A stretch of DNA of 64,000 nucleotides from positions 113,109-177,108 of the forward strand of contig JBNKBE010000014.1 in assembly GCA_050287085.1 (NCBI GenBank), written 5' to 3'. Made by a program: the position numbers and the translations under genes. Origin of the DNA: Polyangiaceae bacterium. GTDB taxonomy: Bacteria; Myxococcota_A; Polyangia; Polyangiales; Polyangiaceae. This document shows, in pieces, positions 1,045 to 46,039 of this stretch (position 1 is its first letter; every line of letters starts with the position of its first letter). The notes beneath the pieces are model-generated. The model was given only the letters and a program-made list of their open reading frames with translations. It searched no databases and was not told the DNA's origin.

Positions 1045-2304
1045 GTGAGTCGCAGTTTCTACGCGTTCATTGCCACCCAGTTGCTCGGTGCCTTCAACGA
1101 CAATCTGTTCAAGCAGCTAATCCTCTTCCTAGCGGCAAGTATTCTCTTTCCGGGCGTCGATAAGCAAGGCCTGGCGTTTGCAGTATTCGCCCTTCCATTC
1201 GTGCTCTTCAGCGGGCTCGCCGGAGACCTGAGCGAGCGATATAGCAAACAGAAGATCATGGTGGCCATGAAGTGGCTCGAAATCGTGATCATGCTGCTGG
1301 GGGCGGTGGCTCTCCAATCGAAGGATTGGAACCTGATGCTGCTGGTACTGTTCGTAATGGGCGCACAGTCGGCGTTTTTCGGTCCCGCCAAGTACGGTGC
1401 GATTCCGGAAATGGTCAAACCGAAGGACCTCATCCGTGCCAACGGCGCGGTAACGATGACGACGTTCATTGCGGTGCTTGCTGGTGGGGCCTTGGCAGGA
1501 CCACTGCTCGACCGGATCGGCGACCGTCTGTGGCTGAGCGGCGTCGCGTGCATCGGGCTCGCGGTATTGGGTACGTTCACTGCCTCGCGCATTCAGCCGC
1601 TATCGGCAACCCGGCCGAACCACGTGGTAGCCACTAGCATCAGTCCACTGACCTGGCCGGCGGCGCTATTTTCAGGCCTCGCCTCGACGATTCGCAGGCT
1701 CTCGCGACGCCAGGGGTTGATGAGTATCGTCTTGCTGAACTCCCTGTACTACTTCAACGCGGGCGTCTTCAATCAAGCGGTTGTCGGCATGGGTGCCCCC
1801 GAGCTTCTCGACATCGGCGCTGGCAATCAGAAGCAACTTTCGGCCATTCTAGCGACACTATCGGTCTCGGTGGCAGTGGGTGCAGTCCTGACGCCAGCAC
1901 TGGCAAAACGCATTGCACCTGGCCGTTTGGTGATCGGGGGGGCGCTCCTCATGGCGCTAGCTCAAGGCTTGATGAATCTGGTGGCCACGGTCGTCACGAA
2001 AGACGCGGGCGCACTGCTGCTGATGCATCTGTGTGCTGCGACAACGGGGTTATTTGGCGCGGTGGTCGTTGTTCCCCTCGCGTCCTATCTGCAGTTCGCC
2101 CCGGAACCGGGCATGCGAGGCATGACGTTCGGGGTTACCAATTTCTTCAACTTCCTCTGCCTATTCCTCGCGGGGCTCTTCTACTTGGTGTTGCGAGGCA
2201 TGTTGGGCATCAGCCCCGCGATCGTACAAAGCGCAAGCGCCGTGTTCCTCATCGCAGGACTCGGCGCGTGGCGCCGTCGTATCAGCGCCATCAACTTTGC
2301 TTGA
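1045..2304 (+). CDS. MFS transporter, LplT/Aas-like lysophospholipid transporter family
   Basis: TQLLGAFNDNLFK and QSAFFGPAKYGAIPE motifs; about 12 hydrophobic segments. Confidence 0.8.
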   Translation: MSRSFYAFIATQLLGAFNDNLFKQLILFLAASILFPGVDKQGLAFAVFALPFVLFSGLAGDLSERYSKQKIMVAMKWLEIVIMLLGAVALQSKDWNLMLLVLFVMGAQSAFFGPAKYGAIPEMVKPKDLIRANGAVTMTTFIAVLAGGALAGPLLDRIGDRLWLSGVACIGLAVLGTFTASRIQPLSATRPNHVVATSISPLTWPAALFSGLASTIRRLSRRQGLMSIVLLNSLYYFNAGVFNQAVVGMGAPELLDIGAGNQKQLSAILATLSVSVAVGAVLTPALAKRIAPGRLVIGGALLMALAQGLMNLVATVVTKDAGALLLMHLCAATTGLFGAVVVVPLASYLQFAPEPGMRGMTFGVTNFFNFLCLFLAGLFYLVLRGMLGISPAIVQSASAVFLIAGLGAWRRRISAINFA

Positions 2305-2435
2305 GCCCCTGCGCGTCTGAAAAAGCGCCTTCGAGGCTCAAGCCGTTCTCCGTTTGACGGGCGTCGATGTGCGCGCTGCGCCGTGCTTGCCGCTGCGCCG
2401 CGCTCGCCGCTGCGCCGTGCTTGCGCCTGGGAAGC

Positions 2436-3701
2436 TCAATCTCGCAAGATCAGTTGATCCCGCTCTGGCCCCACAGAAACGAAGCGAATGGGACACCCGA
2501 TGAGCTCTTCGATGCGAAGAACGTACGCCTGTGCTTCGCTCGGCAGCGCGGCAAAGTCTCGACAAGCCGTAATGTCGGCGTCCCAACCCGGCATCGCTTC
2601 ATAAACCGGCTCGGCACGCTGGAGCTCGCTCGTAAGCGGAAACGTCGTCGCTTCCGTCTCGCCCACGCGATACGCGTGACAGATCTTCAACTCGCGTCGC
2701 CCGGACAAGCTGTCCAGTTTCGTGAGTGCCACCTCTGTGGCGCCTTGGACTTGTACGCCGTAACGTGACGCCACCGCATCAAAGTGCCCGATCGAGCGCG
2801 GGCGCCCCGTCGTCGCGCCGTATTCCTGGGCCGTCTCACGAAGATCGCTCGCTTCGCTTTCGTCCATACGCGCAACAAAAGGTCCTTCACCAACACAGGT
2901 AGAAAACGCCTTCATCACACCCACGACGCGATCAACACCGTGTCCGAACAAGCCTGCGCCGATAGGCGCAAACTCGGCGAGACAACACGACGATGTCGTG
3001 TAGGGGTAGATGCCGTAGTGGATGTCGCGCAGGGCGCCCAGCTGAGCCTCCAGCAGGATATCCTTGCCCTCGCGTGCCGCCGAAGTGAGCAGCTGCGTCG
3101 TGTTGGTGATTCGATTTCCGATACGCGCCAGCTGCTCTCGAGCCCAAGCCGCCGTTTCTTCGACGCTCACCGCTGGCTGGCCATAGATGTTGACGATACG
3201 AAGATTGGCCCATTCGACAGCAGCCGCCACGGCCGCCTCAGGATCGCGCACGAGCTCACCCAGCAGCACCCCCTTCTTCAGGTAGAAGTCGCCATAGGCG
3301 GGCGCTATTCCGTTTTTGGTCGAACCGTATTTGCGATCCGCAAGGCGCGCTTCTTCGAGGCTATCAAGCTGCTTGTGATAGGGAAAGCAGACCGTGGCTC
3401 GCTCGGAAACGACGAGGTTTTCGGTGCTCACGCCCCTCGCCTCCAACTCCTCCAACTCGGCGGCTAGACCCGCCAAGTCGATGACCACGCCTGGACCGAG
3501 CACGTTCAGCACGTCCTTGCGAAAGATCCCCGAGGGCACCAAGTGCAACGCGAACTTGCCCGCCTCATTGACAACGGTGTGTCCGGCGTTGTTGCCCCCC
3601 TGGTAGCGAACGACCACCGAGGCGTGGCGACTGAGGTAGTCCACCATCCGACCTTTGCCCTCGTCACCCCAGTTCACTCCACACACGACTGTCACTGACA
3701 T
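2436..3701 (-). CDS. purA: adenylosuccinate synthetase
   Basis: WGDEGKG P-loop, QGGNNAGHT, EYGATTGRPR, TKLD, SVGPERDQ; AGGAG SD upstream. Confidence 0.97.
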   Translation of the reverse strand: MSVTVVCGVNWGDEGKGRMVDYLSRHASVVVRYQGGNNAGHTVVNEAGKFALHLVPSGIFRKDVLNVLGPGVVIDLAGLAAELEELEARGVSTENLVVSERATVCFPYHKQLDSLEEARLADRKYGSTKNGIAPAYGDFYLKKGVLLGELVRDPEAAVAAAVEWANLRIVNIYGQPAVSVEETAAWAREQLARIGNRITNTTQLLTSAAREGKDILLEAQLGALRDIHYGIYPYTTSSCCLAEFAPIGAGLFGHGVDRVVGVMKAFSTCVGEGPFVARMDESEASDLRETAQEYGATTGRPRSIGHFDAVASRYGVQVQGATEVALTKLDSLSGRRELKICHAYRVGETEATTFPLTSELQRAEPVYEAMPGWDADITACRDFAALPSEAQAYVLRIEELIGCPIRFVSVGPERDQLILRD

Positions 3702-4176
3702 GGTATTAAGCTCCTAGCATCGCCCAGCCGGTTCACTGGCCGGGCACAAACGGCGCGGACGCTATCACGGGGCCACCTGGGCTGGGCGGATAAACAACCG
3801 CTTCTCCTCGCCACCCGGCCCGTGCGCCCGTCGCTCTCGCAAGCGGTCAGCCGCCCATCCACCCAACGGCGCGGTTGCGGCGTAGTCTGCGTGCGGTCTC
3901 AGGGCGCACAGTGACACTGAATTCGAACGGTGCGCCGGTTATGCCCACGCATACCTGATGCAACAAGGCTATCGGGACGCTCCGCTAGCACCATCCATGA
4001 GACAAGGTAGAGCCCGCTGCCCCCCTGGGAGCGCGCCACTTCGGGTCAACCCCAACAATCTCCACCTGACGACTTGTTCTGAAATTCGTCCAATGCTCCT
4101 ATGGGAAAGGCCTGGAAATGCCGTAATGCATGCGCGCACTGCGGCTTCCGTTCTAGACTCGCAAATAGATAGACCA

Positions 4177-5067
4177 ATGGACCGCGTCGACACCCCTCCT
4201 GATCTCGAGCATCTTCTCGCGCTTGGGCTCGAGCACTACGGACGACGAGAGATCGCAGAAGCCATCACTTGTTGGCGCCGAGTTCTCGCTATCGATCCAA
4301 CCCATGCCGGAGCGCGTGACTACCTGGAAGCCGCCGGCGCGGACCCTGAACGGGGCATCCCCTCGGGGACACGCCACGCAGGTCAGGTAATTCATATCGA
4401 AACGGCTAGGGCACAACGGGGAGAAGGCAACGATGGCAAACGTGGTCGAGCCGTCGATGCCCCGGAGAGATCCGTGCATCCGGATGGTCCTGCGGCGCAG
4501 CGCGAGCTCGAGCAGTTGCTTGCGAACCGTAGGTTCGAGGAGGCCCTCACGCATCTGTACGCGGCCCGCAGCCGCCACCCGAATACGGCGTCCATTTCGC
4601 GAGGGATCCGGCTGGTCCGGGAAAAGCTGATCTCGATGTACGCTCAGAAGCTCGGAAGCCTCGATGTAGTGCCGCGCCGTACCGCGCGTGCCGCAGCCGA
4701 GGTCGACTGCGACTCGCTGCAGGTGCTTCCTCTTGTCGATGGCATTTCCTCATTTGAGGATATTCTTGCATCTTGTACATTGGGGCGCTGGGCCGCGCTC
4801 CGAACGCTCTGCCAGCTCCGGGAGCGCGGCGCCCTCACCTGTGCACCCGAGATACGCCCCATGCCTGCGCTGGTCCCCGCGAGTTCCAGACGGCCGAGCA
4901 CCCCGCCGAACGACTACGAAGTCCGATTTCAAGCCGCAACGCGCGCATACTTAGCGCGCGACTACGACCTGGCCGTACGCCTATTTGAAGAATGCGTCGC
5001 CATGAACCCTGCAGATACGCGAGCGCGGTATAACCTGCAGGCGTTGCAACGCCGCAAGAGGAGCTGA
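4177..5067 (+). CDS. TPR-repeat protein with central myxobacterial-type winged-helix-like domain
   Basis: TPR-like AITCWRRVLAIDP and AVRLFEECVAMNPAD; LVDGISSFEDIL...ALRTLCQLRERGAL wHTH-like segment; start moved from 3958 to in-frame ATG 4177 (uncertain). Confidence 0.7.
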   Translation: MDRVDTPPDLEHLLALGLEHYGRREIAEAITCWRRVLAIDPTHAGARDYLEAAGADPERGIPSGTRHAGQVIHIETARAQRGEGNDGKRGRAVDAPERSVHPDGPAAQRELEQLLANRRFEEALTHLYAARSRHPNTASISRGIRLVREKLISMYAQKLGSLDVVPRRTARAAAEVDCDSLQVLPLVDGISSFEDILASCTLGRWAALRTLCQLRERGALTCAPEIRPMPALVPASSRRPSTPPNDYEVRFQAATRAYLARDYDLAVRLFEECVAMNPADTRARYNLQALQRRKRS

Positions 5068-5873
5068 TGAAGGTACTTGCTGTTGTCAGTCAGAAGGGGG
5101 GCGTCGGGAAGACGACGCTTGCCCTAAACGTCGCGTATGCGTTGGCCAACCGTGGACTTCGAACAATCCTGATGGATACCGATCCCCAGGGTGCTGTCGG
5201 GTTATCCTTGGACAACATTTCCGCCTCCGAAGGGACCGTCGGCTGTATCCTACGCAGCGCACCGCCGCGAGCCGCGCTGCTGACCACGCGGCTACCGGAG
5301 CTGAGCATTCTTCCCTTTGGCAATGCGACCCCCGGAGAGGCGGCGAAGTTTCATAGCCAAGTCGAGGACGGGGGGGCGCTCACGCAACTGGTCGCGAGCG
5401 TCGCTGACAAGGCGGATGTCGTGATCATCGATACCCCGTCCGGTCTTTCAGGCAGTACGCTCGGTGCCCTGCGAACGGCTGACAGCGCGATATCGCCGCT
5501 GCAGGCCGAACCGCTTGCGATGCGCAGCCTTCCTCAGCTGCTTGGAACCATTGCGGAACTACGGGAGAGCGGTCACCGTATTGAGTTGGTTGGTCTGGTG
5601 CTCAGCATGCTTCAGCAGCGCCAAGAGTCTTCTCTCTCTGTGGCCGAAGAGGCGTGGAAGCGACTACCGGGCGACCTTGTGTTGGAAACGACGCTGCCAC
5701 GCGATCCAAGCGTGCTCGACGCCAGCGCACTAGGACTGCCGCTGGGGCTCGTGAGCCGTCTGCGCCCCCCGCCCATCGCTCTGGTTTTCGAACAGTTGGC
5801 CCTCGAATTGATACCGCGCCTGGAGCTTGCTCCGAACGGTGCTGAGGAGGCCCCAGTTGGCCTTTTTGCCTGA
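5067..5873 (+). CDS. ParA/Soj/MinD-family ATPase (orphan)
   Basis: Deviant Walker A QKGGVGKTT, Walker A' DTDPQG, Walker B IIDTP; 1-nt TGATG overlap with upstream gene. Confidence 0.92.
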   Translation: MKVLAVVSQKGGVGKTTLALNVAYALANRGLRTILMDTDPQGAVGLSLDNISASEGTVGCILRSAPPRAALLTTRLPELSILPFGNATPGEAAKFHSQVEDGGALTQLVASVADKADVVIIDTPSGLSGSTLGALRTADSAISPLQAEPLAMRSLPQLLGTIAELRESGHRIELVGLVLSMLQQRQESSLSVAEEAWKRLPGDLVLETTLPRDPSVLDASALGLPLGLVSRLRPPPIALVFEQLALELIPRLELAPNGAEEAPVGLFA

Positions 5874-6432
5874 CGATCCCACTCTTAAACGGGTTCTCCA
5901 GCGGCTTCGCGCGCCAGCCGGCCCTGGCAAGCCACCTCGCTCCAGGGCCGACGACGAGGGCAACGCCCCGGAAGTTGCTCTCTCCCGCTCCGTGAGCGAC
6001 ACGCCTCCGTCGGCACAAGTGGCTCCCCCTCCCTCCCTCTTTCCGTTGGCTGACCTTTCGGCGCGTTTGGAGTCCGCAAGCAGTATGGAAGGACGCCTGT
6101 CCGTGGTGGCGGAATGGCTGGAACAGAGCACCGACGCCAACGCAGCGTTCATCGCGGACGCCGAGGGACTGCCGCTGACCGAAACACGCGCGACCGACCA
6201 AGTGGTGGCAGCGGCGGGAGCTGTACGCGAGGCCTTGGCTGGACTGCGGTCGATGATCCCTGATGCCGGTGCTGGCGTTATTCGCATGGAATTGGGCGAC
6301 GGAAACAAACTGGAACTATGCGAGTTCCGCTCCCCCTTGGGCACCCTATTTGTTGGACTGATCGGGGCCAGACGGAACCTCGATGAATGGCAGACCTGGT
6401 TAGGTCGAGCCTTCTCGCTCGCCGTCGGCTGA
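5857..6432 (+). CDS. roadblock/LC7 (MglB-like) domain protein with N-terminal basic peptide and Pro-rich linker
   Basis: GAGGAGG SD 6 nt before in-frame TTG 5857; AFIADAEGLPL is the typical roadblock beta1-beta2 (D-x-x-G) hairpin followed by a helix and further strands. Confidence 0.65.
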   Translation: MAFLPDDPTLKRVLQRLRAPAGPGKPPRSRADDEGNAPEVALSRSVSDTPPSAQVAPPPSLFPLADLSARLESASSMEGRLSVVAEWLEQSTDANAAFIADAEGLPLTETRATDQVVAAAGAVREALAGLRSMIPDAGAGVIRMELGDGNKLELCEFRSPLGTLFVGLIGARRNLDEWQTWLGRAFSLAVG

Positions 6433-6433
6433 C

Positions 6434-7048
6434 GTGAGCGAGCGGAACACTGGAGGAGAAGTGACTGTAAGCAGTGAAGCAGTATTGCACCAAGCCCTTG
6501 AGGCCGTGCCATCTTTGAAGGCGGTCTTCGTAACGGCGATGCCCGACTGTCTGCTCTTCCTTTCCTGGGAGCGAGACGGACAAGGCACAGCGGCAGAGGA
6601 CATCGCAGCGTATTTTGGTGATTTGATCCGAGCCAATCGTCAGGGCCTCAAAGCTCTGGGCACCTGGTCGGAAGAGATGCACGTCACCATCGAGGCCGAC
6701 CAAGCACTCGTCGTCTTGCGCGAGCTCGGAACGGATTTCGTCGTAAGCTTCGTATTCGATCGCGCCTCTCCCCTCGGTATGATCCGACTGAATGTGAGGC
6801 AGCTGGTGACGTTGATGCATAGCCACCTGCCCAAGGTCGAAGCAACAGAACGTCCGCGAGCCATCCGAGTGATCGAGTTCCTTCTGCGCTACGCACCTGA
6901 CCCTCACATGGCGCTGCAGCGTGTCGCGCTCAGAACCGGAGTCGAGTTGGAACGACTGGAACGCCCAGAAGGCCTTGAAAGCGACGAAACCTCACTGATC
7001 GAGCAGGCGACCTGCGACATTCTGGGACTAGAGAGCCTAGGGCTGTAA
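6434..7048 (+). CDS. roadblock/LC7-like domain protein with C-terminal helical extension
   Basis: helix-beta-beta-helix-beta-beta-beta-helix pattern ending SPLGMIRLNVRQL (cf. roadblock NLGxxRL); alternative GTG 6461 after GGAGG. Confidence 0.6.
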   Translation: MSERNTGGEVTVSSEAVLHQALEAVPSLKAVFVTAMPDCLLFLSWERDGQGTAAEDIAAYFGDLIRANRQGLKALGTWSEEMHVTIEADQALVVLRELGTDFVVSFVFDRASPLGMIRLNVRQLVTLMHSHLPKVEATERPRAIRVIEFLLRYAPDPHMALQRVALRTGVELERLERPEGLESDETSLIEQATCDILGLESLGL

Positions 7049-7058
7049 GGGAGAAATC

Positions 7059-8324
7059 ATGGACGCACTGGAGCTCGGTCCGCTTCGACGCTATCTCCTC
7101 GAACAAGAGTTGATGTTCTTGGCAGGGCAACCCGCAACCTACCACTGTCACCACTACAATCTCTTCCTCGATCAAACCATCGACGATGCCCTCGGCGTGG
7201 CAGACGCGACTCGACTCAAGACTCGGGCAGCGCGGGAAGCCACTTACCCCCTCATCGCAAACGCCTGTGAGCATGTGGGTGCCTCCACGCCGGCGGAGCG
7301 AACGCAAGTGGCCACTGAGCTATTTCGACTGATGGGGCACGGCCGACTCGATGTGCTAGCCGGCCACGATCAGGGGTCGGCCAAAGGCGCGTTTCTTCAT
7401 TACAGCCATTCCTGGAATGAGAAATACGGCGCTAGCGTCCGGCGTCGCCACCCCGCTGACGCTTTCGCAAGCGGATTTATCTGCGCAGCTTCTGAGGTCG
7501 CCGAGGGACTGCCTTGCGGAACTCTGTGGGCTACCGAGGAGCGCTGTGCGGCTCTCAAAGAGCCCAATTGCTCGTTTGAACTCACGCGGGATCCAGAGCC
7601 GGAAGCGGCGCGTATCCACGTGGGAGAGGCCGAGACACAGAGCGTTGTTGGCCCCGCCGGCGACGGCGTCGGCGAAGACGTGATTCAGCCGATCGTAGCG
7701 GGCCTGAAGGCCTTCACCGCCACGGTCAGCGGCGACGCGCGCGGACTCATTCCCGCGTTCGGCGTGTTCGCAGCGATGCAGATGACGGGCTACTACAACC
7801 GCATCAGCTACGATGCTGTGGAAGAGGTGGCAAGAAGGTCTCCCGCATCGGTGCCGGTACTCGAATCGCTGCTGAGGGAATCCGGTCACGTCTGCGTCTA
7901 TCATACCTTCGGCGGGGTACTGCTGAGCCCTGAATGGGAGTCTCTCGTGGGGCCTCCTCAGGGTTCGCCACAGGACATCGTGGTCTGGTGCATGGCCATT
8001 GCGCGAGGCTTCGGTTTCGGGCGCTGGCAACTTGCTGAGTTCGAAGAGAACAGGCGGCTCGTATTGCGGACCTCGTCGTCCTACGAGTCCGTCTACTATC
8101 GAACGCGACACGGGCTTGCTCAACGCCCCGTTGAGTACCTGTGGCAGGGAGCAGCGGTGGCTACAGCGCAGCTCGCGCATAGCGTATCATGGAAGGACAA
8201 TCCAACCTTGAACGCCGAAAGCTACCAAGAGCTGTTCAAGCGCGGCATCAAGTGGAAGGCGGAACAGACCCAGGCGATAACAGCAGGGGACCCCGTCAGC
8301 GAAATTGTCGTAACGCGCGTTTGA
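7059..8324 (+). CDS. tandem V4R (4-vinyl reductase)-like domain protein
   Basis: Two repeats each with G-x-G-R/W strand (MGHGRL; FGFGRW) and V4R-like C-terminus (EERCAALKEPNCSFEL; degenerate EQTQAITAGDPVSEIVV); GGGAG SD. Confidence 0.7.
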   Translation: MDALELGPLRRYLLEQELMFLAGQPATYHCHHYNLFLDQTIDDALGVADATRLKTRAAREATYPLIANACEHVGASTPAERTQVATELFRLMGHGRLDVLAGHDQGSAKGAFLHYSHSWNEKYGASVRRRHPADAFASGFICAASEVAEGLPCGTLWATEERCAALKEPNCSFELTRDPEPEAARIHVGEAETQSVVGPAGDGVGEDVIQPIVAGLKAFTATVSGDARGLIPAFGVFAAMQMTGYYNRISYDAVEEVARRSPASVPVLESLLRESGHVCVYHTFGGVLLSPEWESLVGPPQGSPQDIVVWCMAIARGFGFGRWQLAEFEENRRLVLRTSSSYESVYYRTRHGLAQRPVEYLWQGAAVATAQLAHSVSWKDNPTLNAESYQELFKRGIKWKAEQTQAITAGDPVSEIVVTRV

Positions 8325-8340
8325 ACTGAGCGACACCGCC

Positions 8341-8703
8341 ATGGACGCTAGGTCACCCGGAGATAGCGACGACACCGACGTCCCGGACGACACCTGCGTC
8401 GCTTTTCGACTGGGGCGAAGTTGCTATCGGGCGCTGAGCTGGGAGGCTCATCTCCCAGTGCTGGCGCCGGAGTCGCTCACCACGGCGCTCCGGCTCGCGG
8501 GGTTTGCTCCCGTGCAAGCCCCCGCTTTCGGTGACAAGCTCCTGCAGTTCGAGACCGAAGCCGGGCACCGTCTGTTGTGGGTGCCCGCCAGCGGGCGCTG
8601 CCAGCTGCGCTTGTCGTATCTTACGCTTCCCCCAGACCGTGAGGCGGTAGCCAGGCAACTCGGTCAACGCCTGGGCCAAGTCATTGCCGAAGCGTCAGCG
8701 TAG
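8341..8703 (+). CDS. hypothetical protein, last gene of the ParA/roadblock/V4R operon
   Basis: 120-aa ORF 16 nt downstream of the V4R gene on the same strand. Confidence 0.55.
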   Translation: MDARSPGDSDDTDVPDDTCVAFRLGRSCYRALSWEAHLPVLAPESLTTALRLAGFAPVQAPAFGDKLLQFETEAGHRLLWVPASGRCQLRLSYLTLPPDREAVARQLGQRLGQVIAEASA

Positions 8704-8724: not shown

Positions 8725-9462
8725 TCACTGAGCCTGCGCATCATTCGGCAGGGGTTTGAGCGCATCGCCGCTGTCCTGCTCGCCCCCCTCCCCTGACGGC
8801 CGCTCTGGGGACGGCCCAGCAGAGGGCACCGCGAGAGGTGTTGACCCCGCGGCGGCAGGCCCCTGAAGCTCGACCGCTGGAGCAGGATGCTCAGACCAAG
8901 GCGACGGCGGCGATAACAAGCCCGAGGCGATATCCCTTGGGGGCTCCGTCGGGCCCAGCCCAGGCCAAGGTGCAAGCAGCGTGGGTTGCTCGATCGAGGG
9001 CTCGCTCACCTCGCGTCGCGGCACTGAGCCCTCCGAACGGTGCGCCGCACTGTGTTCAGCTATAAGCAGCAAGCGACGCACGTGCACGCGGTATTCGTCC
9101 TGGGAGATGTCACCGTTGCCCAACGCCTCACAGAGATGAAAGAACGCTACCTCCAGTCGATAGCCGACGGTCGGAGCTTCGCCGCCCGAGTCACCCTGTC
9201 CCCGGAGAAGCGGTACACTCAGAGCACCGGTACACGTTCTGACGCCCCGGCGCCCCGAACGAACCACCGTCACATGCCCCGCCGTTTCGTTGACGTAGAC
9301 ACCGTAGTGGTCAACACGAAAGGTCGGAGTCTGCGGATGACAAGCGCTGACTAGCCCAACAGCCAGACAACCAAGGACCTTGCCACCAAGGCTCCCTCGA
9401 TCGCAGCCTCTCCAGAAACGGGTCTGAAACGCGGAAAGCATGTGCTTCTGTGTTAGATACAA
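8725..9462 (-). CDS. hypothetical protein, probable lipoprotein with Pro-rich C-terminal tail
   Basis: VLGCLAVGLVSAC lipobox-like segment; globular FHLCEALGNGDIS region; start uncertain. Confidence 0.55.
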   Translation of the reverse strand: MYLTQKHMLSAFQTRFWRGCDRGSLGGKVLGCLAVGLVSACHPQTPTFRVDHYGVYVNETAGHVTVVRSGRRGVRTCTGALSVPLLRGQGDSGGEAPTVGYRLEVAFFHLCEALGNGDISQDEYRVHVRRLLLIAEHSAAHRSEGSVPRREVSEPSIEQPTLLAPWPGLGPTEPPRDIASGLLSPPSPWSEHPAPAVELQGPAAAGSTPLAVPSAGPSPERPSGEGGEQDSGDALKPLPNDAQAQ

Positions 9463-9502
9463 TGGCTCTGACCAGGCTTGCAGACCAGCGGCTTAGGGTC
9501 CC

Positions 9503-9547
9503 CACCGTCCGCAAGCTCACCGTCCGCAAGCTCACCGTCCGCTGGCT
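9503..9547. repeat. 15-bp tandem repeat x3 (CACCGTCCGCAAGCT)
   Basis: Two exact copies plus CACCGTCCGCTGGCT in the divergent intergenic region before ppc. Confidence 0.9.
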
Positions 9548-9880
9548 TCATACCAGAGAGCTGCACCGGCAACGCTGGTCTTTTCCCTACCCGGGGTTTG
9601 TGCTGCAACCCACTTCCTTGACCCATGGGACGCAAGGCTAGCCCGCGCCCAGCGCGCGCGCCAGTACGGGTCTGTTGTGGGGTCCATTTCACCAGGGCGC
9701 AAGGGTGCCCCGGTCAGGCGACCCATCGCGCCCCGTGCAACCCAAGCCCAAAGACCGTGGAGTGTGTCGGGTGATGCCGGCTCGAAACACATCGGCCTGG
9801 GATTCCAGCCGCATCCGAGAGCCGGCCCCCACATCACGAGGGTTGACGGCCCTCGGCAAACGTCAGGTACCCTGCACGCG

Positions 9881-12526
9881 ATGAAAGGCATTCCAGAGCA
9901 ACTTCGCAATGATGTTCGGGTCCTGGGGTCACTGCTCGGCGACATTCTCAAGGAGCAAGCAAGCCTCACGATCTTCGAGCGGGTCGAGCAGGTGCGCGCT
10001 CTCGCAAAGCGGGCCCGTGATGGCGACACTCGGGCCGCGGAAACCTTGGCGGGAACGCTTTCCGCTCTGCCCATCTCTGAAGCCCTTCCCGTGGCTCGCG
10101 CGTTTTCCCTATTCCTCACTCTGGCCAACATCGCCGAGGCCCACCACGGTCTGAGGGCGCCGGAGGCCGGTGATGCCGACGGTTCTTTCGCCCACGACGC
10201 CGACAAGACCTTCGCCGCGATGCTGGCCAACGGCGTCAGCGCCGATGAACTGCACGACACCGTATCTAGGCTCAACGTCGAGCTCGTGCTCACAGCCCAC
10301 CCAACCCAAGTGGTACGCCGCACTCTGCTGCGCAAGTACAACGTGCTCGCGGATCTGCTTGCTGAGCGAGACTCGCGACAGGATCCGTGGCTTGCGGTAG
10401 ACGAACAAGACGAAGCCCTGGAACGAGAGATCACTTCGATCTGGGACACGGACGAAGTGATGCGCAAGAAGCCAACACCCGTGGACGAGGCGCGAGGTGG
10501 ACTTGCCGTTCTCGAGCAAGTGGTGTGGCATGCACTGCCTGTCTGGATGCGCCGTCTAGACACTTCGCTTCGTACCCACACCGGACGCGGGTTGCCGCTC
10601 GAAAGTGCCCCGGTACGCTTCGGCTCGTGGATGGGTGGCGATCGTGATGGCAACCCCAACGTTTCGCCTGAAACGACACTCCGAGCGTCATGGCTCGGTC
10701 GCTGGATGGCAGCCGACCTTTTTTACAAGGAGATCAATGCGCTGCGCGACGAGCTCTCGACCCGAGCCTGCAGCGCGGAACTGCGAGCGCTGGTCGGTGA
10801 TAGCAACGAGCCGTATCGCGACCTGCTTCGCGACGTACGGCAGCGCTTGCGCAACACGCGCGAGAGGATGCAGCGCCTGCTCGACGGCAAGAAGCCCGAC
10901 GACGAGCCCTACTACGCCAAGGAAGCCGAACTCCGAGATCAGTTGCTGCTTTGCTACCATTCCTTGTGCAGCGTTGGCCAGGAGGTGGTGGCCCGCGGTC
11001 GCTTGCTCGACGCACTGCGGAGACTGTCTTGCTTTGGACTGACTATGGTACGTCTTGATCTCCGTCAGGAAAGTACCCGACACACGGAAGCTATCGCTTG
11101 CATCACCCAGCACCTGGGCTTGGGTGACTACTCGCAGTGGGACGAAGCCAAACGACAAGAGTTTCTCGTGGCCGAGCTCGAGAATCGGCGCCCGCTCATC
11201 CCCTGGGATCTGCAAGCACCAGCAAGCGTGGTGGATGTGCTCGATACCTTCAGGGTAGCCAAAGAGATCGGCCCCGACGCTCTCGGCGCGTACGTCATTT
11301 CGATGGCCCGCCAGCCCTCCGACGTGTTGGCCGTCGAGCTTCTACAGAAAGCGGTCGGCAACACCACCCCCCAGCGAGTGGCCCCACTATTTGAGACCGT
11401 GGATGATCTCGATAGCGCGGCCAGTACTATGCGACAGCTGTACAGCATTCCTTGGTACCGCCGCCGGATTGGCGGTTCACAGGAGATCATGATTGGATAC
11501 TCCGACTCCGCGAAGGACGGGGGGCGACTGGCCGCCAATTGGGCTTTGTACCAAGCCCAGGAAGAGGTGGTAGCGGTGTGCGAGGAGTTCAACATTCACC
11601 CAACCCTCTTTCACGGCCGAGGTGGAACGGTCGCGCGAGGCGGAGGCCCGACGCATCTTGCCATTCAGTCGCAACCAGCCGGCTCGATCAAGGGCACGTT
11701 GCGAGTTACTGAACAAGGCGAAATGATCCAAGCCAAGTTCGGCAACCCACGGGTCACGGTGCGCACCTTGGAAACATACGTCGCTGCGACCGTCGAAGCG
11801 ACGTTGGCACCTCCTCGGAAGCCAGAACCCGCGTGGCGCGCGCGCATGGAAGTGCTCGCCGATACGTCGTGCGATGCCTACCGCGCCGTCGTCCGTGAGG
11901 AGCCTCGCTTCGTCGAGTACTTTCGCCAGGTAACGCCCGAAGTGGAGCTCGGCTCCTTGAACATCGGCAGCCGCCCGGCCCGCCGCCGAAAGAGCGGTGG
12001 CATCGAGACATTGCGCGCGATTCCGTGGATCTTCGCCTGGACGCAGAATCGCCTCTGCTTGCCCTCGTGGCTGGGTGTAGGCGACGCGTTGGGACAGGCT
12101 ATCGCTGACGGACATCTCGATGAGCTGCAGCAGATGCGACAGCACTGGCCGTTCTTCCGTTCCACTCTGGACTTGATCGAGATGGTCGTTGCCAAGGCGG
12201 ATCCGAGCCCTTCGGTCTTCTACGATCGCACTTTGGTACGAGAAGAACTGCGTCCCTTTGGGGACGAGCTACGCGGCAAGCTGGGGGCAACCGTGAGCGC
12301 CGTGCTCAAAGTCACGGGGCATACCGAACTGCTCGAAGACTACGGGGTGGGCACTCATGGTCTTCGACTTCGCGACCGATACATGGACCCCCTCAACGTA
12401 TTGCAGGCGGAGTTGCTACGACGTCTCCGTGCGCAGCCCGAAGACAGCCCACCAGATCCGAAACTGTGGGAGGCGTTTGTGGTGACGGTCAATGGCGTCG
12501 CCGCAGGCATGCGCAACACGGGCTGA
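9881..12526 (+). CDS. ppc: phosphoenolpyruvate carboxylase
   Basis: VLTAHPTQ, SWMGGDRDGNP, MIGYSDSAKDGG, FHGRGGTVARGG, LRAIPWIFAWTQ, C-terminal AAGMRNTG; start moved to ATG 9881. Confidence 0.97.
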   Translation: MKGIPEQLRNDVRVLGSLLGDILKEQASLTIFERVEQVRALAKRARDGDTRAAETLAGTLSALPISEALPVARAFSLFLTLANIAEAHHGLRAPEAGDADGSFAHDADKTFAAMLANGVSADELHDTVSRLNVELVLTAHPTQVVRRTLLRKYNVLADLLAERDSRQDPWLAVDEQDEALEREITSIWDTDEVMRKKPTPVDEARGGLAVLEQVVWHALPVWMRRLDTSLRTHTGRGLPLESAPVRFGSWMGGDRDGNPNVSPETTLRASWLGRWMAADLFYKEINALRDELSTRACSAELRALVGDSNEPYRDLLRDVRQRLRNTRERMQRLLDGKKPDDEPYYAKEAELRDQLLLCYHSLCSVGQEVVARGRLLDALRRLSCFGLTMVRLDLRQESTRHTEAIACITQHLGLGDYSQWDEAKRQEFLVAELENRRPLIPWDLQAPASVVDVLDTFRVAKEIGPDALGAYVISMARQPSDVLAVELLQKAVGNTTPQRVAPLFETVDDLDSAASTMRQLYSIPWYRRRIGGSQEIMIGYSDSAKDGGRLAANWALYQAQEEVVAVCEEFNIHPTLFHGRGGTVARGGGPTHLAIQSQPAGSIKGTLRVTEQGEMIQAKFGNPRVTVRTLETYVAATVEATLAPPRKPEPAWRARMEVLADTSCDAYRAVVREEPRFVEYFRQVTPEVELGSLNIGSRPARRRKSGGIETLRAIPWIFAWTQNRLCLPSWLGVGDALGQAIADGHLDELQQMRQHWPFFRSTLDLIEMVVAKADPSPSVFYDRTLVREELRPFGDELRGKLGATVSAVLKVTGHTELLEDYGVGTHGLRLRDRYMDPLNVLQAELLRRLRAQPEDSPPDPKLWEAFVVTVNGVAAGMRNTG

Positions 12527-12626
12527 GGTCGCGCGGCCCTCGCCGGACACCAGCCTGCGGCAAGTGGGGCTGGTTCCGGTGGTGCGCGAGCGCCTCCGCC
12601 GTCAGAGCCACCGGGCTGCTCCCAGG

Positions 12627-13259
12627 TCAGTCCGCAGATGTCGCGACTACTGCGCGCAAGCTGTCAATGATGGGCGAAAGGACTGCGCGCCGAAGCTTGT
12701 ACAGACTTCGATTGGCGATCAACACGCTGGAAATGTCGCAGATGGTTTCGACCACCTCGAGCTTGTTCTCCCGAAGGGTGGAGCCAGTTTCCACGATGTC
12801 GACAATGACATCGGAAAGACCGACCAAAGGGGCGAGTTCAACCGAGCCCTGAATGAAGATCACTTCTGACTGCACCCCTTTGCGCGCGAAGTGTTCAGTC
12901 GCAATGCGGGGATACTTTGTCGCAATGCGAGGCAGATCCGGAACGGCTCTTCCCTCCGGTGCGGCTACCACCATCCGACACTTACCGATCCCCAAGTCGA
13001 CCGGTTGATACAGACTGTAGCCCCGTTCACCCAAGGTATCGCGGCCGCTGATTCCAAGCTCTGCGGCCCCGTACTCGACATACGTTGGGACGTCATCGGG
13101 CTTCAGCATCAAAAAGCGCAAACGACCATCGCGGCTCTCGCGAACTAGATTGCGGTCATCGCTCAGCAGACACTCACAGTCGAGGCCAGCTCGAGACAGG
13201 AGCGGCACTAGTACCTTGTTGATACGCCCCTTGGGCACGGCAATCGTAACGGGTTTCAT
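12627..13259 (-). CDS. hisG: ATP phosphoribosyltransferase, short form (HisZ-dependent)
   Basis: [40 protein letters not shown]; 210 aa with no C-terminal ACT domain. Confidence 0.95.
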
Positions 13260-18125: not shown

Positions 18126-18869
18126 GTGCTTGATTCTTCGACCCCGCGCCGCAAGGGCGTATCGCCATATCCTTCTGCGCCCGACGCGCCGCTCGGCCGC
18201 ACTCACCGCACGCCCGACGCAGAAGCAACGCGTTCCCAAGGTCCGGGTGAAGTAGCGCTGGTCGCGCGAGCGCTCTTGGGCTGCGAAAGCGCTCGTGCCC
18301 GAACCGCAGCGCTGCGCGTACTCGAGTTCGCGGGCGGATTGGAATACATTCAATGCTTGGAGGCCCACGAGCTTGGGGGCTTGCTCCGGGTTACACCACG
18401 ACGAGCGGCCCAGCTTCTTGACGCCCTTGAGCTAGGGCGCACGGCGTGCATGCGGCTCAGCTCGCGTCGCCTTCGGGCCACCCCATTCGAAAGCGTGGCC
18501 GACGTTGATACCTGGGCGCGTCCTCGACTTGCGCAGCTGCCCCATGAGGAAGTCTGGCTCCTGAGTCTGGACGCGCGAGGTCGCTTGCTGCGAGCGGATC
18601 GGGTCGGTCAGGGAGGTGTTCATGCTTGCGCGCTACTGCCCCACGACATCCTCAGGCCAGCCGTTCGCAATGGCGCCAGCGGTGCGATATTGGTCCACAA
18701 TCACCCAAGTGGCGACCCGCGGCCAAGCGCCGACGACGTCGCCATGACGCGGGTCCTATTGGGCGCCTTCGAGTGCCTCGGGATCCCCCTGCTGGACCAC
18801 GTCGTAGTGAGTGCTGCTGCGAGCGTCTCGGTTCTCGACAGCACCCAACTAGATGAGCTCGCCGCCTGA
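18126..18869 (+). CDS. radC: RadC-family JAB-domain protein
   Basis: N-terminal HhH-like region, EEVWLLSLD, HNHPSGDPRPSADD, LLDHVVV. Confidence 0.9.
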   Translation: MLDSSTPRRKGVSPYPSAPDAPLGRTHRTPDAEATRSQGPGEVALVARALLGCESARARTAALRVLEFAGGLEYIQCLEAHELGGLLRVTPRRAAQLLDALELGRTACMRLSSRRLRATPFESVADVDTWARPRLAQLPHEEVWLLSLDARGRLLRADRVGQGGVHACALLPHDILRPAVRNGASGAILVHNHPSGDPRPSADDVAMTRVLLGAFECLGIPLLDHVVVSAAASVSVLDSTQLDELAA

Positions 18870-18945
18870 GGCATCGGGGCGATCCGGCTGTCTGCCCAGA
18901 AGCACCAGTGGCCCAGGCGTCAATGTCCGAGTATCCTGTCACGGG

Positions 18946-20415
18946 ATGCAGACCCCCGAAATCACATTCGCGGCTCTTACCGACGTCGGGCGCAAGCGTG
19001 AGCACAATGAGGACAACTTCCTCGTCGACAAGAAGCTCTCCTTCTTCGTTGTTTGTGACGGCATGGGGGGACACGCCGCCGGAGAAGTCGCCAGCGCGAT
19101 CGCGGTTCGTACGCTACACGACGAACTCAAGAAGGAAGTCGAGATGCTGGAGGACTACTGCGAAGACAAGCAGGGTGCCGATCGCGTCAATCAGAAGGAC
19201 ATCCTCAACATGCTTGAGTTTGCTGCCAATCGCGCCAGTCGAGCCGTGCATGAGGCCGCCCAAGCAGACGCCAGCAAACGCGGCATGGGCACGACGCTGG
19301 TGGCCGTTCTATTCCTGCGCTCGCAGGCGTTTATCGTTCATGTCGGAGACAGCCGCGCCTACCTACTCCGCAACGGGGTGCTGGAACAACTGACGGACGA
19401 TCACAACGTCCACAACGAGCTGATGCGCCGCAAGAAGCTCACCAAAGCGGAAATCCTGCGCCTTGCACCGAAGAACGCCATCACGCGCGCGGTCGGTGTA
19501 TACGAAAGCTGTGAACCCGATACCCTGGTGATGGACGTAGTATCGGGTGACCGCTTCCTGCTCTGCTCGGACGGGCTCAGCGAGTACTTCGAAGGACCCC
19601 ATGGCGCGCCCGAGCAACTCGCCAGCCTCCTCGAGTCTCCGGATGCCGAGCAGACCACCCGTGAACTGATCGAAGTCGCCAACTCGAAGGGCGGCAAGGA
19701 CAACATTACGGCCGTTGTTGTCACGGTGGGTGACTTGGGCGAGGAAGACCAGACTCGTGCTGCACGCCTCGAGCTCAAGAAGACCGTGCTCGGTGACTTG
19801 CCGTTCTTCAATACGTTGGACGATAGGGAGTTGCTGCGCGTTCTGCAGGCGACCAAAGAGCTCGAATTTCAGGATGGGGATCGCATCATCACCGAAGGTG
19901 AGCGGGGCGACTCGCTCTACATCCTGCTCAAAGGTCAGGTCCGCGTGGTGCGCGCCGCCGCAACACTCAAGACTCTCTACGCTGGTGAACACTTCGGAGA
20001 GATGGCGCTGATCCGCAGTCAACCGCGGTCTGCGAGTATTCTGGCGGAGGGCCCCACCGAGCTATTGTGCATTCACCGCGGCGACTTCTTCGAAATCTTA
20101 CGGAGTCAACCTCGCCTTGCCGTCAAGCTCTTGTGGCAGTTCACGGGGGTTCTCGCGGACCGCCTAGCGGACACCAACCGCGACCTAGGCGTAGCGCGCG
20201 AAGAACTGGCAGAAGAAATCGATCCGGACGATGTAACCGAAGAGCTCTTCGGCTGGGATCCCGAAGACGAGCGCGAGACGATTCGGGTCCCGGCGCCAGC
20301 CAGTGGCCCACCACAATCACGTCGCTTTGGGGCCAGCGCCCCCCCAGCCGAGCCGCCAACGCCCCTGCACGAGACAGCCCAGCCGCGGACGCCCGAAACC
20401 GGAAAGAAAGTGTGA
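18946..20415 (+). CDS. PP2C/Stp1-type Ser/Thr phosphatase fused to a cyclic-nucleotide-binding domain
   Basis: TDVGRKREHNED, VCDGMGGHAAGEVAS, HVGDSRAY, LCSDGL, GGKDNIT; cNMP FGEMALI...PRSASI; start moved to ATG 18946. Confidence 0.92.
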   Translation: MQTPEITFAALTDVGRKREHNEDNFLVDKKLSFFVVCDGMGGHAAGEVASAIAVRTLHDELKKEVEMLEDYCEDKQGADRVNQKDILNMLEFAANRASRAVHEAAQADASKRGMGTTLVAVLFLRSQAFIVHVGDSRAYLLRNGVLEQLTDDHNVHNELMRRKKLTKAEILRLAPKNAITRAVGVYESCEPDTLVMDVVSGDRFLLCSDGLSEYFEGPHGAPEQLASLLESPDAEQTTRELIEVANSKGGKDNITAVVVTVGDLGEEDQTRAARLELKKTVLGDLPFFNTLDDRELLRVLQATKELEFQDGDRIITEGERGDSLYILLKGQVRVVRAAATLKTLYAGEHFGEMALIRSQPRSASILAEGPTELLCIHRGDFFEILRSQPRLAVKLLWQFTGVLADRLADTNRDLGVAREELAEEIDPDDVTEELFGWDPEDERETIRVPAPASGPPQSRRFGASAPPAEPPTPLHETAQPRTPETGKKV

Positions 20416-37159: not shown

Positions 37160-37677
37160 TGTCCCCTTGTGCCGCCTGGAGCCCTCGAACACAAGGCGAC
37201 GTGACGCGGCGAAGCTCCAGCGCGCTGCGCCACGGGCCGTGGCCCGGGTTGCCGCCGTGCAACGAGTCGCCCTGTCCAGGTTGCCTGAGGTCAAGCCCCG
37301 GGCCCAGCGCCCTCCGACCAACCCGAGCACAGAGAACGAAATTTCTGCATACCCTCGACATGCCCTGCACCGAGCCAACGATTCCTGCAATACCTGAGAA
37401 ACATTGCCCGAAATCCCCGGCCGCCGGACCATTCAGCGGGAGCGCCAGATCAACTCCTAGCACAAAGACGAGTGCCACGACCGGCGTCTTCGTGTCACTC
37501 TGGCGCTGGGGACATCCTGTGCTTGGGGGACGCTAATCATAGGCGGTTTGGGGGTCGTTGTGCAGCACACAAGCTCGCGGCGGTCGGCTTTCACCCTGGT
37601 GAGTGCCCTGCCGCGTTTGCAAACCCCAATGTCGATTCCTCAGCCCCAACTCTCCCCTACGTTCCACTCCTCAATCC

Positions 37678-44218: not shown

Positions 44219-46039
44219 ATGATGCCTATTACTCTGTCCCAGCCGCTCAAAGGCGCGCTCGCATATGCGCTCTCGACGCTGCTTGCTACCGTCGCTTGCG
44301 GCAACACCGAAGGTGCGTTCAATGTAGAAGCTCCGGCCCGCGGCCCCTCCCAGCTGCTACCAGATGACGGCCCGGTGAGCGACGGCAATTTCAGGGGTGG
44401 CGACGACGCCATTCCAACGCTGAATGGCGACGCCAGCCCGGATCAAATAGTCGCCAGCTGTGACTCCGAATGCCGTGCGTTCTGCAACAACGCTGGGCTG
44501 GACAATCCCGTCAACCAAGGGCTGTGCCCCAGTCTGTGGGGTCTCGGCCGTGCCTCCAACGAAGTGGACACCTACGAGGCCTGTCGCCGTCTGTTCATGG
44601 ATACGACCGGGCGCTTTCCCACCTATTGGGAAGTCAAGAATGAATGCTCCGGACGGCCATGGGGCGAGGTTGTAATGGCACGCCTCGACTCCCCAGAGTT
44701 CGTCCGCCTCAACCGCCGACGCTGGGCGGATATCATGGGCTACGATTCGACGAGCGTCAGCATCGAGCGCATCTACGACATGGACGCGGTCGTCAGCGCT
44801 CTCTATCGCGGCGAGCTCTCGTACGACCACTTCGCAGCTATCGCATCGGCGCACCCTGTCCTGACCCGGCGTTTTGCCACCGAGGGCGATCGAGCTGAAG
44901 CCCTGTTCTGGCTGTTCTGGGGGCGCCCTCCTTCTGGGGCTGAGCGCAGCGACATAGCCCGGCTCTATCACCTCTGGACCAACCACTACTACGACCACCC
45001 AGAGCTCGGCATGCGGCTTCCCGACGCGTTCATTCGCTACCGCTGCCTGGATGAACTGGGAGCCGTCAACGAAGGAACGGCTGGCTCCTGTACCAGCACA
45101 GCCTTTGGCTTTGAGCAGCTCATACTCAAGCCTGACGCCCGCTCCATCAAGGTCGATGACGACGTGCTGATGTGGAGCGGACATCTAACGACCAACGAAT
45201 GGCAGAAGCTGCAAGCGCCCGGGCGCTTACTGTCGGAGCAGTGGCTGTTCTGGGAGCACGCGGCCAACGCCGTCCTCCACCAGTACCTCGACTACGATAT
45301 TTCCACGTTGGCACCTGAGATCGGAGAACGCCTGGTCCAATACGTCCTGGACAAGAACGGCGACATGAGAGCCCTGCACTTCGCGGTTCTCACTTCCTCA
45401 GTCTATCTCCAGTCCGCACGAGGTAATGACGCCAAACCACTTCGCTTCACCTACGGTCCCCTGAAGCAGGCTGAGGCGGAAGACTGGGTCGACTCCCTAG
45501 ACGAACTGACAGGTAGCCGTCTCCGGCGCTGCGACCTGCGCATCAATCGCCCGGGTGAATTCCTCGACGTCGGCAGTCCAGCGGCACTCGCGCTGATCGC
45601 TGAGTCGGACTGGGAGGTCAACGACGAGTGGTCCAATGTCCGTACGGACTACCGCGACCTAGTCCGAACGCTAGGTGGTTGTCCCGACAATTCTCAGGGA
45701 GGTCGCTTCAAGACGATCAGCGTCCTCACCACCGCCAACCAGCTCAATCATGCACGCAAGGTGTGCGACCCAAGCGGAAACGGTAGCGACGTGCGTGCCG
45801 ACCTTCAGAAGCTGCTGCCTGATGGAATCTCCGCCAACCATGCCGTGTCCGCGGATAGCGCGGAGGCGATCTACACGAACCAGGTTCGCCGTTTCTTCTC
45901 GCGCAACCCCAAGAGCAGCGAGAAAGAGCAGGCACGTGCCCACGGGGAAGCCTGCGCGCGTGAACAATGTGACGCCGAGAGCTTTGCTCGCAACGTCTGC
46001 TACGCACTGCTCAGCAGCGCAGAAATGGTGTTTTACTGA
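44219..46039 (+). CDS. Cys-rich lipoprotein with DUF1549/DUF1553-like segments
   Basis: LLATVAC lipobox; CRRLFMDTTGRFPT (cf. RRLxxDLxGRxPT), FWGRPPS, LTSSVYLQ, RFFSRNP, YALLSSAEMVFY. Confidence 0.65.
   Translation: MMPITLSQPLKGALAYALSTLLATVACGNTEGAFNVEAPARGPSQLLPDDGPVSDGNFRGGDDAIPTLNGDASPDQIVASCDSECRAFCNNAGLDNPVNQGLCPSLWGLGRASNEVDTYEACRRLFMDTTGRFPTYWEVKNECSGRPWGEVVMARLDSPEFVRLNRRRWADIMGYDSTSVSIERIYDMDAVVSALYRGELSYDHFAAIASAHPVLTRRFATEGDRAEALFWLFWGRPPSGAERSDIARLYHLWTNHYYDHPELGMRLPDAFIRYRCLDELGAVNEGTAGSCTSTAFGFEQLILKPDARSIKVDDDVLMWSGHLTTNEWQKLQAPGRLLSEQWLFWEHAANAVLHQYLDYDISTLAPEIGERLVQYVLDKNGDMRALHFAVLTSSVYLQSARGNDAKPLRFTYGPLKQAEAEDWVDSLDELTGSRLRRCDLRINRPGEFLDVGSPAALALIAESDWEVNDEWSNVRTDYRDLVRTLGGCPDNSQGGRFKTISVLTTANQLNHARKVCDPSGNGSDVRADLQKLLPDGISANHAVSADSAEAIYTNQVRRFFSRNPKSSEKEQARAHGEACAREQCDAESFARNVCYALLSSAEMVFY

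Follow-up and report, generated by a model that had tools for sequence, protein, structure and literature searches.

A six-gene operon in a Polyangiaceae genome

We analyzed a 64,000-nucleotide stretch (here referred to as the window) of contig JBNKBE010000014.1 from the Polyangiaceae bacterium assembly GCA_050287085.1. We focused on six co-oriented open reading frames (ORFs) that span positions 4177 to 8703 on the plus strand and are flanked by purA on one side and an opposite-strand gene on the other. An earlier reading of the DNA letters alone (the original prediction) had proposed that these genes form an undescribed system in which a ParA ATPase takes the place of a small GTPase. The genes and their features are as follows:

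4177..5067 (+): gene 1, tetratricopeptide repeat (TPR) scaffold, 296 aa (Pfam TPR_14, E 2.5e-8)
5067..5873 (+): orphan ParA/Soj-type ATPase, 268 aa (Pfam AAA_31, E 7.5e-29)
5857..6432 (+): roadblock 1 (RB1), 191 aa, TTG start (profile matches to MglB and LAMTOR5)
6461..7048, alternative start 6434 (+): roadblock 2 (RB2), 195 aa (AlphaFold2 (AF2) model and structure matches)
6857..7030 (+): putative V4R-docking domain within RB2, four helices, YAPDP...R motif (predicted interface)
7059..8324 (+): predicted tandem V4R protein, 421 aa (AF2 model and structure matches)
8341..8703 (+): small one-cysteine protein, 120 aa, codon of C28 at 8422-8424 (cysteine conservation and gene position)

In agreement with the original prediction, the six genes are co-oriented, the first two overlap at a TGATG at 5067, and a Shine-Dalgarno-type GAGGAG precedes the TTG at 5857 within parA. 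Gaps of 16 nt or less had been claimed throughout, which holds for the other genes. RB2 probably starts at the GTG at 6461, which is preceded by GGAGGAG, rather than at 6434, because the annotated protein (P0133) has 195 aa and most homologues have 191-192 aa; the gap after RB1 is then 28 nt and not 1 nt. We found no match to a sigma-70 promoter at the operon and no excess of terminators.

The gene order is conserved and resolves into two modules

A GTDB scan identified 140 relatives of the V4R protein, of which the best 80 define close loci, and 22 further loci are distant. Counts of ParA and the roadblock proteins refer to the 69 close loci with at least 3.3 kb of upstream sequence, and the six-gene count refers to the 63 loci with enough flank; many close loci are related and several are near-duplicates and, therefore, these counts overstate independence. 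RB2 lies immediately upstream of the V4R gene in 80/80 close loci, and a one-cysteine gene lies directly after it in 75/79, comprising 64 members of the family found here and 11 of a cyanobacterial family with weak homology to it. ParA, RB1, and RB2 occur together in 53 of the 69 loci, RB1 and RB2 in 2, and RB2 alone in 14. All six genes are present in 40/63 loci. Gene order, whose lack of conservation had been named beforehand as a refuting outcome, is conserved far beyond chance, so that none of the refuting outcomes named for the folds or the gene order was observed. By contrast, ParA, which the original prediction treated as a fixed part, is optional and is absent from 16/69 close loci, hot-spring cyanobacteria included.

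The relatives that carry names are mostly from Polyangiaceae and other Myxococcota bins, and the nameable ParA-bearing records are metagenome bins throughout. In an even sample of 401 genomes of the phylum, a V4R relative is present in 26, and within the family in 4/28. The RB2-V4R-one-cysteine core without ParA is found in hot-spring Thermostichus, Thermosynechococcus, and Gloeomargarita and in one Thermus/Deinococcus-group bin (loci L117-L126 and L128); carriers of this ParA-less core include some cultured isolates, and RB2 is duplicated in L120. In a Methylococcaceae bin (L108:4350-9500), inspection by eye suggests narHJI-like nitrate reductase genes followed by an RB2-V4R-small protein core. 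The operon has Ser/Thr kinase genes next to it in L073, L074, and L109, and a histidine kinase gene lies downstream in L130, L135, and L137.

At the distant loci, the neighbors of the V4R genes are hybrid histidine kinases, chemotaxis genes, or a roadblock-MglB-MglA-DUF4388 set. MglA is encoded at 3/108 V4R loci and never alongside ParA, as expected if the small GTPase is replaced where ParA is present. The MglA loci differ in gene order; the swap is therefore seen at the level of modules and not in the same slot. These loci (L055-L057) carry genes for a roadblock protein, a split V4R pair, a desulfurase-like protein, a one-cysteine protein, a protein of 293-322 aa, MglB, MglA, and DUF4388, and L056 has four V4R genes. 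At a kinase-linked V4R locus (L038), the flanks at 1887-4549 and 9194-13000 contain, by eye, nnrS-, protoheme farnesyltransferase-, and oxidase-subunit-like genes.

To place the ParA protein, six candidates were scored in each of the 401 genomes. Its clade was found at 21 places in 17/401 genomes, 6 of which are V4R-linked. At the 15 other places, an RB1-type gene lies directly downstream in 10 as identified by hidden Markov model and in 3 more by eye, and 2 have none. Five of these 15 places also encode ODP (PF19583), which is reportedly an oxygen/iron sensor. One of the five is in the genome analyzed here, where a second operon of this clade encodes a PAS histidine kinase, a roadblock protein, a REC-DUF4388-TPR protein, ParA, an RB1-type protein, and ODP (contig C15, ~86800-91400, minus strand). 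Because ParA-RB1 recurs with other sensors and the V4R core occurs without ParA, we distinguish two modules, i.e., ParA-RB1 and V4R-small protein-docking domain.

ParA keeps its catalytic residues and lacks a DNA-binding arginine

The ParA protein belongs to a distinct orphan clade with an acidic tail terminating in PIxL(L/F). The features that define ParA proteins (KGGxGK[ST], DxD, and the Walker B aspartate) are all present, and the catalytic residues are highly conserved among the 55 family members (K10, D39, and D122 in 55/55, K15 in 53/55, and Q41 in 50/55), with D39 and Q41 aligning with D60 and Q62 of Myxococcus xanthus ParA. The best solved relatives are ParA/Soj proteins, at 152 bits vs 91 for MinD. 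A quick tree with two long-branch outgroups places the C15 paralogue, but not the chromosomal ParA, in this clade. A third orphan ParA is encoded in this genome (contig C6, 162133). The top NCBIfam match was BcsQ (88 bits, cut-off 158); we rejected this identity because Soj-type structures score far higher and cellulose synthase families are absent among the recurring neighbors. Consistent with the original description of ParA as an orphan, no ParB was detected among the 31 window ORFs of one Pfam scan or the 9 ORFs of another, and allowing up to 3 mismatches, we found zero matches to the parS consensus. The single parB of the genome adjoins another parA on contig C2, and this separate parAB pair lies apart from mglBA, which is on contig C7.

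The R238 change in M. xanthus ParA abolishes non-specific DNA binding (excerpts of PMC12462528). We mapped the equivalent position, 215, via PDB chain 8ray, which from its sequence is taken to be the D60A construct of that study; it is Arg/Lys in only 1/55 family members, and Arg in the chromosomal ParA of this genome. This loss in 54/55 members weakens the original proposal of ParA-driven localization. The asparagines of the chromosomal DPQxN and PRN motifs are both replaced in the clade. Basic residues are kept at position 185 in 42/55, 212 in 53/55, and 231 in 48/55 members; R185 is a second basic DNA-site position and, therefore, some DNA binding may still be possible. The net charge (median -6) equals that of the chromosomal ParA and is uninformative. 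As judged by eye, the hydrophobic end after the acidic linker is short, with no evident MinD-type amphipathic helix, and the invariant columns include no cysteine. Because the R238 equivalent is lost and the catalytic residues are kept, a switch appears likelier than nucleoid-guided positioning, and the sequence pattern is more in line with an active ATPase that has a protein as its partner than with a partition protein that surfs on the nucleoid.

RB1 and RB2 are predicted roadblock proteins

RB1, whose gene is the regular partner of this ParA clade, has a conserved N-terminal helix, a Pro-rich linker, and a predicted roadblock domain. Its profile matched MglB (E 5.9e-4) and LAMTOR5 (E 1.5e-3) in the PDB, with roadblock proteins among the top 18 matches, and aligned to roadblock profiles in hhalign with E 1.7e-5 and 79% probability, while a narrower profile reached only E 0.7-1.4. 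The ESM Atlas leads for RB1 are also roadblock proteins (0.85-0.90). Based on these profile matches, we assign RB1 as a roadblock protein. The AF2 model of RB2 (pLDDT 89.8) is MglB-like across model residues 1-123 and has four extra helices. It matches MglB in Foldseek (E 3.3e-6), and the VIA Z scores are 16.2 to 9jue and 15.6 to MglB 6hjm (rmsd 2.0-2.3 over 118-120 aligned residues, with 2.3 over 120 for 6hjm), which identifies RB2 as a roadblock fold at the level of the model. The proposal of two roadblock proteins is thus borne out by profile for RB1 and by structure prediction for RB2. Aligned with each other, the RB1 and RB2 profiles gave only E 0.042, and neither these two proteins nor the V4R protein and the small protein are named by Pfam or NCBIfam at their cut-offs. 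The conserved N-terminus of RB1 is partly encoded within the overlap with the end of parA; because the coding regions partly overlap, conservation of the N-terminal motif and of the ParA tail is not independent.

The V4R protein is predicted to be held by the C-terminal domain of RB2

The AF2 model of the V4R protein has a pLDDT of 95. Residues 1-182 match MopR in Foldseek (E 5.5e-5) and PoxR by VIA (Z 14.7, rmsd 3.2, 176 residues aligned), followed by the V4R protein MJ1460 (Z 12.5), TRAPP subunits/Bet3 (Z 8-10), BcsD (Z 8.9), and H-NOX (Z 8.4). Precomputed PF02830 matches exist for 24 of the 120 homologues listed, and a Pfam scan of the protein from this operon gave no V4R match. In the second half, the model repeats the same secondary-structure topology, and this half is a separate gene in distant, split two-gene homologues. 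We therefore regard the protein as a predicted tandem, i.e., a fused heterodimer; of the double V4R originally proposed, the first half is supported by structure matches of the model, and the second is a candidate V4R half on the basis of the topology repeat and split homologues. Identity with BcsD was rejected because cellulose synthase families are absent among the recurring neighbors.

Complex prediction of the V4R protein with whole RB2 gave a score of 0.88, and the best of three controls gave 0.00; the score mark used is reached by 116/157 solved complexes and 2/215 mismatched pairs and is rough here, where our own alignments were used. The runs share at least 93% of contacts, and the pLDDT of the partners is at least 79. 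All confident contacts of RB2 fall within residues 153-199 of its C-terminal tail (numbered from the 6434 start), whereas those of the V4R protein span both halves. The predicted interface includes the four invariant residues of the RB2 tail (Y141, D144, R151, and L185; numbering of alignment A2) and, on the V4R side, Q39, D43, Y123, L271, and E274, which are invariant in 96/96 sequences. These results support the prediction that the C-terminal domain of RB2 binds the V4R protein across both halves and leaves the roadblock fold free. Because the confident contacts of RB2 are confined to the tail, the adaptor would be a docking domain fused to a roadblock protein and not a TRAPP-like contact between folds. 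Hence, the roadblock-V4R coupling of the original prediction is retained as a predicted link, but through a C-terminal helical domain, and the suggested echo of TRAPP and Asgard modules is reduced to the level of folds.

Among the 22 distant loci, 10 have a stand-alone gene for a docking protein of ~60 aa directly upstream of the V4R gene, and one has a fused version. In 5 of these loci, the RB2-tail profile matched the stand-alone ORF (E 0.1-0.5), and the stand-alone and RB2-tail profiles align with each other (hhalign 96%, E 4.2e-9). The domain thus occurs by itself in distant loci, where it has ties to chemoreceptors. No solved relative of the docking domain or of the small protein was found by sequence. 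The 81 longer docking-domain proteins listed (124-290 aa) are mostly RB2-sized, and none is an obvious receptor or kinase fusion, which is weak as evidence of absence. A diverged second copy in genome G230 (L046:4842-9550) comprises genes for ParA and RB1, for a long protein with the docking domain at its end, and for a V4R protein with CESHH in place of HCHH.

The small protein and the possible signal

The small protein has a single cysteine that is invariant in 73/73 sequences, and three positional counterparts also have one invariant cysteine. It received no name from Pfam, the PDB, or the ESM Atlas, where its clusters are unnamed. Profile comparisons between the one-cysteine families gave 91% in one case and 2%, 0.1%, and 0.3% in the others. 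Among 104 sequences per half, the V4R protein has a near-invariant set of H29 and C30 (102), H32 (101), H114 (103), and C279 (103); E292 and E343 are also near-invariant. The residues E160, C163, and C171 form an E-x2-C-x7-C pattern of the MopR Zn-site type, with C163 kept in 94 and C171 in 90 of the 104 sequences; distant members have lost these cysteines. A cysteine-desulfurase-like gene (class-V aminotransferase) lies in the same orientation at 10/22 distant V4R loci. Because ODP appears as an alternative input at other ParA places and the His/Cys residues are so conserved, our best guess, held at clearly less than even odds, is that the signal is oxygen, redox, or metal-sulfur status, sensed through a cofactor on H29, C30, H32, H114, and C279.

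Gene 1 and other features of the window

In the gene 1 protein, TPR-like segments lie at each end and also in the middle part, and TPRs pass the Pfam cut-offs, as originally predicted. The proposed winged helix may correspond to residues ~150-225, with no match to a winged helix-turn-helix in the PDB or Pfam; the middle-segment profile weakly matches the C-terminal region of one of the DUF4388 proteins encoded in this genome (E 0.005). The genome has 17 DUF4388/PATAN matches, and a close relative of the gene 1 middle domain is encoded at 12692-13852 of contig C20. The slot of gene 1 is variable, and DUF4388/PATAN-TPR proteins fill it in other loci (DUF4388 is upstream in L087, L091, and L100). 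A TPR-type gene precedes ParA in 42/53 loci, as judged with a permissive profile under which DUF4388-TPR proteins also count.

The operon is surrounded by housekeeping genes with even GC content, and a 245-aa ORF without a Pfam family converges on it (8725-9462, minus strand). Elsewhere in the window, on the plus strand, are a PP2C-cNMP-binding phosphatase (18853-20415), a REC-GGDEF-EAL protein (37603-39828), and three long overlapping ORFs (44219-48827), the middle one of which is DUF1501 and the outer two without a Pfam family at E 1e-6.

A proposed coupling of a V4R sensor to a ParA-type switch

The operon is real and conserved, and it probably serves in signaling, with a likely new sensor unit. 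We propose, at a rough probability of 0.55, that the V4R sensor is coupled via the roadblock proteins to a ParA-type nucleotide switch, as MglA works with MglB. The tandem V4R protein and its one-cysteine helper would likely form a cytoplasmic sensor, held by the predicted docking domain of RB2. RB2 may pair with RB1 as a roadblock dimer, and RB1, via its N-terminal helix and/or the dimer surface, would contact ATP-bound ParA and set its ATPase cycle. TPR proteins can bind protein tails, and the gene 1 protein may read or anchor the state of ParA, possibly via the conserved hydrophobic ParA tail. The output would be control of cell polarity or motility, which is a guess by analogy with MglAB.

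Several observations weigh against this proposal. Related and duplicated loci inflate the counts, the conserved ends of ParA and RB1 are not independent evidence because of the overlap, and the N-terminal motif of RB1 is retained at locus L104, where ParA is missing. The three loci with MglA belong to the distant group (~25% identity, with split V4R genes and a different gene order). Of the 10 stand-alone docking genes, 5 were chosen by position and eye alone, and no docking gene was found in 11/22 distant loci; of the four comparisons of one-cysteine families, only one aligns well. No close locus has a co-oriented desulfurase gene (0/80, with 1 on the opposite strand) and, therefore, a link to sulfur may not hold for the operon analyzed here. 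Finally, the second basic DNA-site residue, R185, is retained in 42/55 ParA proteins.

This last point bears on the alternative that ParA, on the nucleoid or a pole landmark, distributes a roadblock-V4R cargo as ParC or McdA does, with RB1 as a ParB-like activator. The ParA/Soj proteins as closest solved relatives (152 vs 91 bits for MinD), the basic residues at 185, 212, and 231, and the resemblance of the RB1 helix and long linker to ParA activators fit such positioning, but the R238 equivalent is Arg/Lys in a single member of the family and the acidic tail, by eye, ends without an evident MinD-type helix; we therefore consider positioning unlikely. Less probable still is that the roadblock proteins signal in trans to the ordinary MglA-MglB system of this genome, with ParA as an accessory. 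That the orphan roadblock protein MglC provides a precedent (excerpts of PMC4719450), that mglBA is present on contig C7, that RB2 is structurally close to MglB, and that 16/69 close loci have no ParA would agree with signaling in trans; however, parA overlaps RB1, the pair recurs with other sensors, and RB1 without ParA is found in just 2/69 loci.

Similarly improbable, in our view, is that the V4R pair acts as an enzyme or as a scaffold for a metal cofactor, with ParA as the loading chaperone, in the manner of CooC, Mrp, or HypA-linked ParA. Such a role would account for the dense invariant His/Cys/Glu set, the one-cysteine helper, and the desulfurase-like neighbor in distant loci, and metallochaperone roles have been proposed for other ParA clades (excerpts of Li, Burroughs and Aravind, bioRxiv 10.64898/2026.10.19.760177, 2026 preprint). 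It is at odds with a ParA that has no conserved cysteine, is missing wherever the desulfurase gene is found, and tracks RB1 and not V4R, as well as with the mostly signaling-related neighbors of V4R. The same excerpts describe combinations of ParA, winged helix-turn-helix, V4R, and profilin/longin-like domains, which together with the patchy spread (26/401 genomes and 4/28 in the family) would agree with an anti-phage system akin to ParA-wHTH with V4R and profilin-like domains. We regard this as very improbable, given that the ConB2 marks are missing in ParA, PADLOC returned two weak partial ParA matches only, the neighbors are housekeeping genes, and an effector domain was not found.

Returning to the coupling of a V4R sensor to a ParA-type switch, a more speculative and rather doubtful extension is that the V4R heterodimer is a portable gas/redox sensor of a new class. 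Here, HCHH, H114, and C279 would carry a sulfur-dependent metal cofactor, which the one-cysteine protein would load or complete, and the unit would dock via the 60-residue domain into chemoreceptors, MglAB, or a roadblock heterodimer that acts on ParA as a regulator similar to a GTPase-activating protein or guanine nucleotide exchange factor. If true, this would be a roadblock platform on a non-Ras NTPase and a bacterial counterpart of Ragulator-style signaling. The V4R sensor unit, with its predicted docking domain and short residue list, appears to be unstudied so far, and the operon proteins are small and probably soluble.

Comparison with known systems

In the largely open-access literature, including excerpts of PMC3791482, we found no passage on this operon or on a V4R unit with a docking domain and a one-cysteine protein, no functional study, and nothing on V4R with a cysteine desulfurase or with an iron-sulfur sensor or chemoreceptor; V4R proteins of the Slr0144 type are treated in PMC13174344 (excerpts). 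The idea of ParA in place of MglA has already been stated. According to excerpts of the bioRxiv preprint cited above, some MglA-MglB systems have a PriB1 ParA domain where MglA would be, and these domains serve as switches. This resembles our proposal in the exchange of MglA for ParA beside MglB-type proteins and in the reading as a switch. The text on these systems amounts to one or two sentences, and in these the V4R protein, docking domain, and one-cysteine protein are unnamed. Of the PriB1 marks, the Gln after DxD is present here (Q41, 50/55), while Walker A starts with Ser (S8, 54/55) vs Asn in PriB1. Thus, the original claim of no prior description does not extend to the swap, whereas for the V4R sensor part, which appears to be new, we found no paper.

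Other systems share single elements with this operon. The adjacent parB, the parS, and the R238-equivalent arginine of ParABS are all missing, as are the ConB2 marks of ParA-wHTH immune systems (Arg for the Walker A Lys and a PG motif), in place of which we find K15 in 53/55 members and DPQG. The conservon (CvnABCD) is likewise a tight signaling operon with a roadblock protein; this is the sole conservon feature here, where the membrane kinase CvnA, CvnC, and the GTPase CvnD are missing, which argues against the conservon-like module originally suggested. In TRAPP (Bet3 and longin) and the Asgard V4R/roadblock proteins, both fold families also occur side by side (Bet3, Z 8-10; excerpts of PMC10933270 and PMC2253512), but the contact predicted here avoids the roadblock fold, there is no Rab-like GTPase, and the V4R protein is closer to PoxR than to Bet3. 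MopR, PoxR, and DmpR (XylR_N and V4R) share the V4R fold (Z 14.7) and the E-x2-C-x7-C residues; here, by contrast, the protein is a predicted fused heterodimer without a sigma-54 ATPase and with the invariant HCHH/H114/C279 set. ODP systems similarly combine a soluble sensor with varied transducers, and in 5/15 places with the same ParA-RB1 pair, although the ODP fold is unrelated to V4R.

A close parallel is MglA-MglB(-MglC) of M. xanthus and Thermus thermophilus, with a shared MglB-like fold, two roadblock proteins, a PATAN/TPR-type neighbor, and a P-loop NTPase (excerpts of PMC4316618). Here, the NTPase is a ParA-type ATPase and not a small GTPase, the roadblock proteins have extra domains, and V4R and one-cysteine proteins are attached; because the GTPase is missing, we regard the operon as MglAB-like but not as a member of that system. 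Roadblock proteins have been proposed to be general NTPase regulators, and 328/749 MglB-family genes have no coupled GTPase (excerpts of PMC4316618). For some of these orphan genes, a ParA ATPase would be a concrete candidate partner of a different class.

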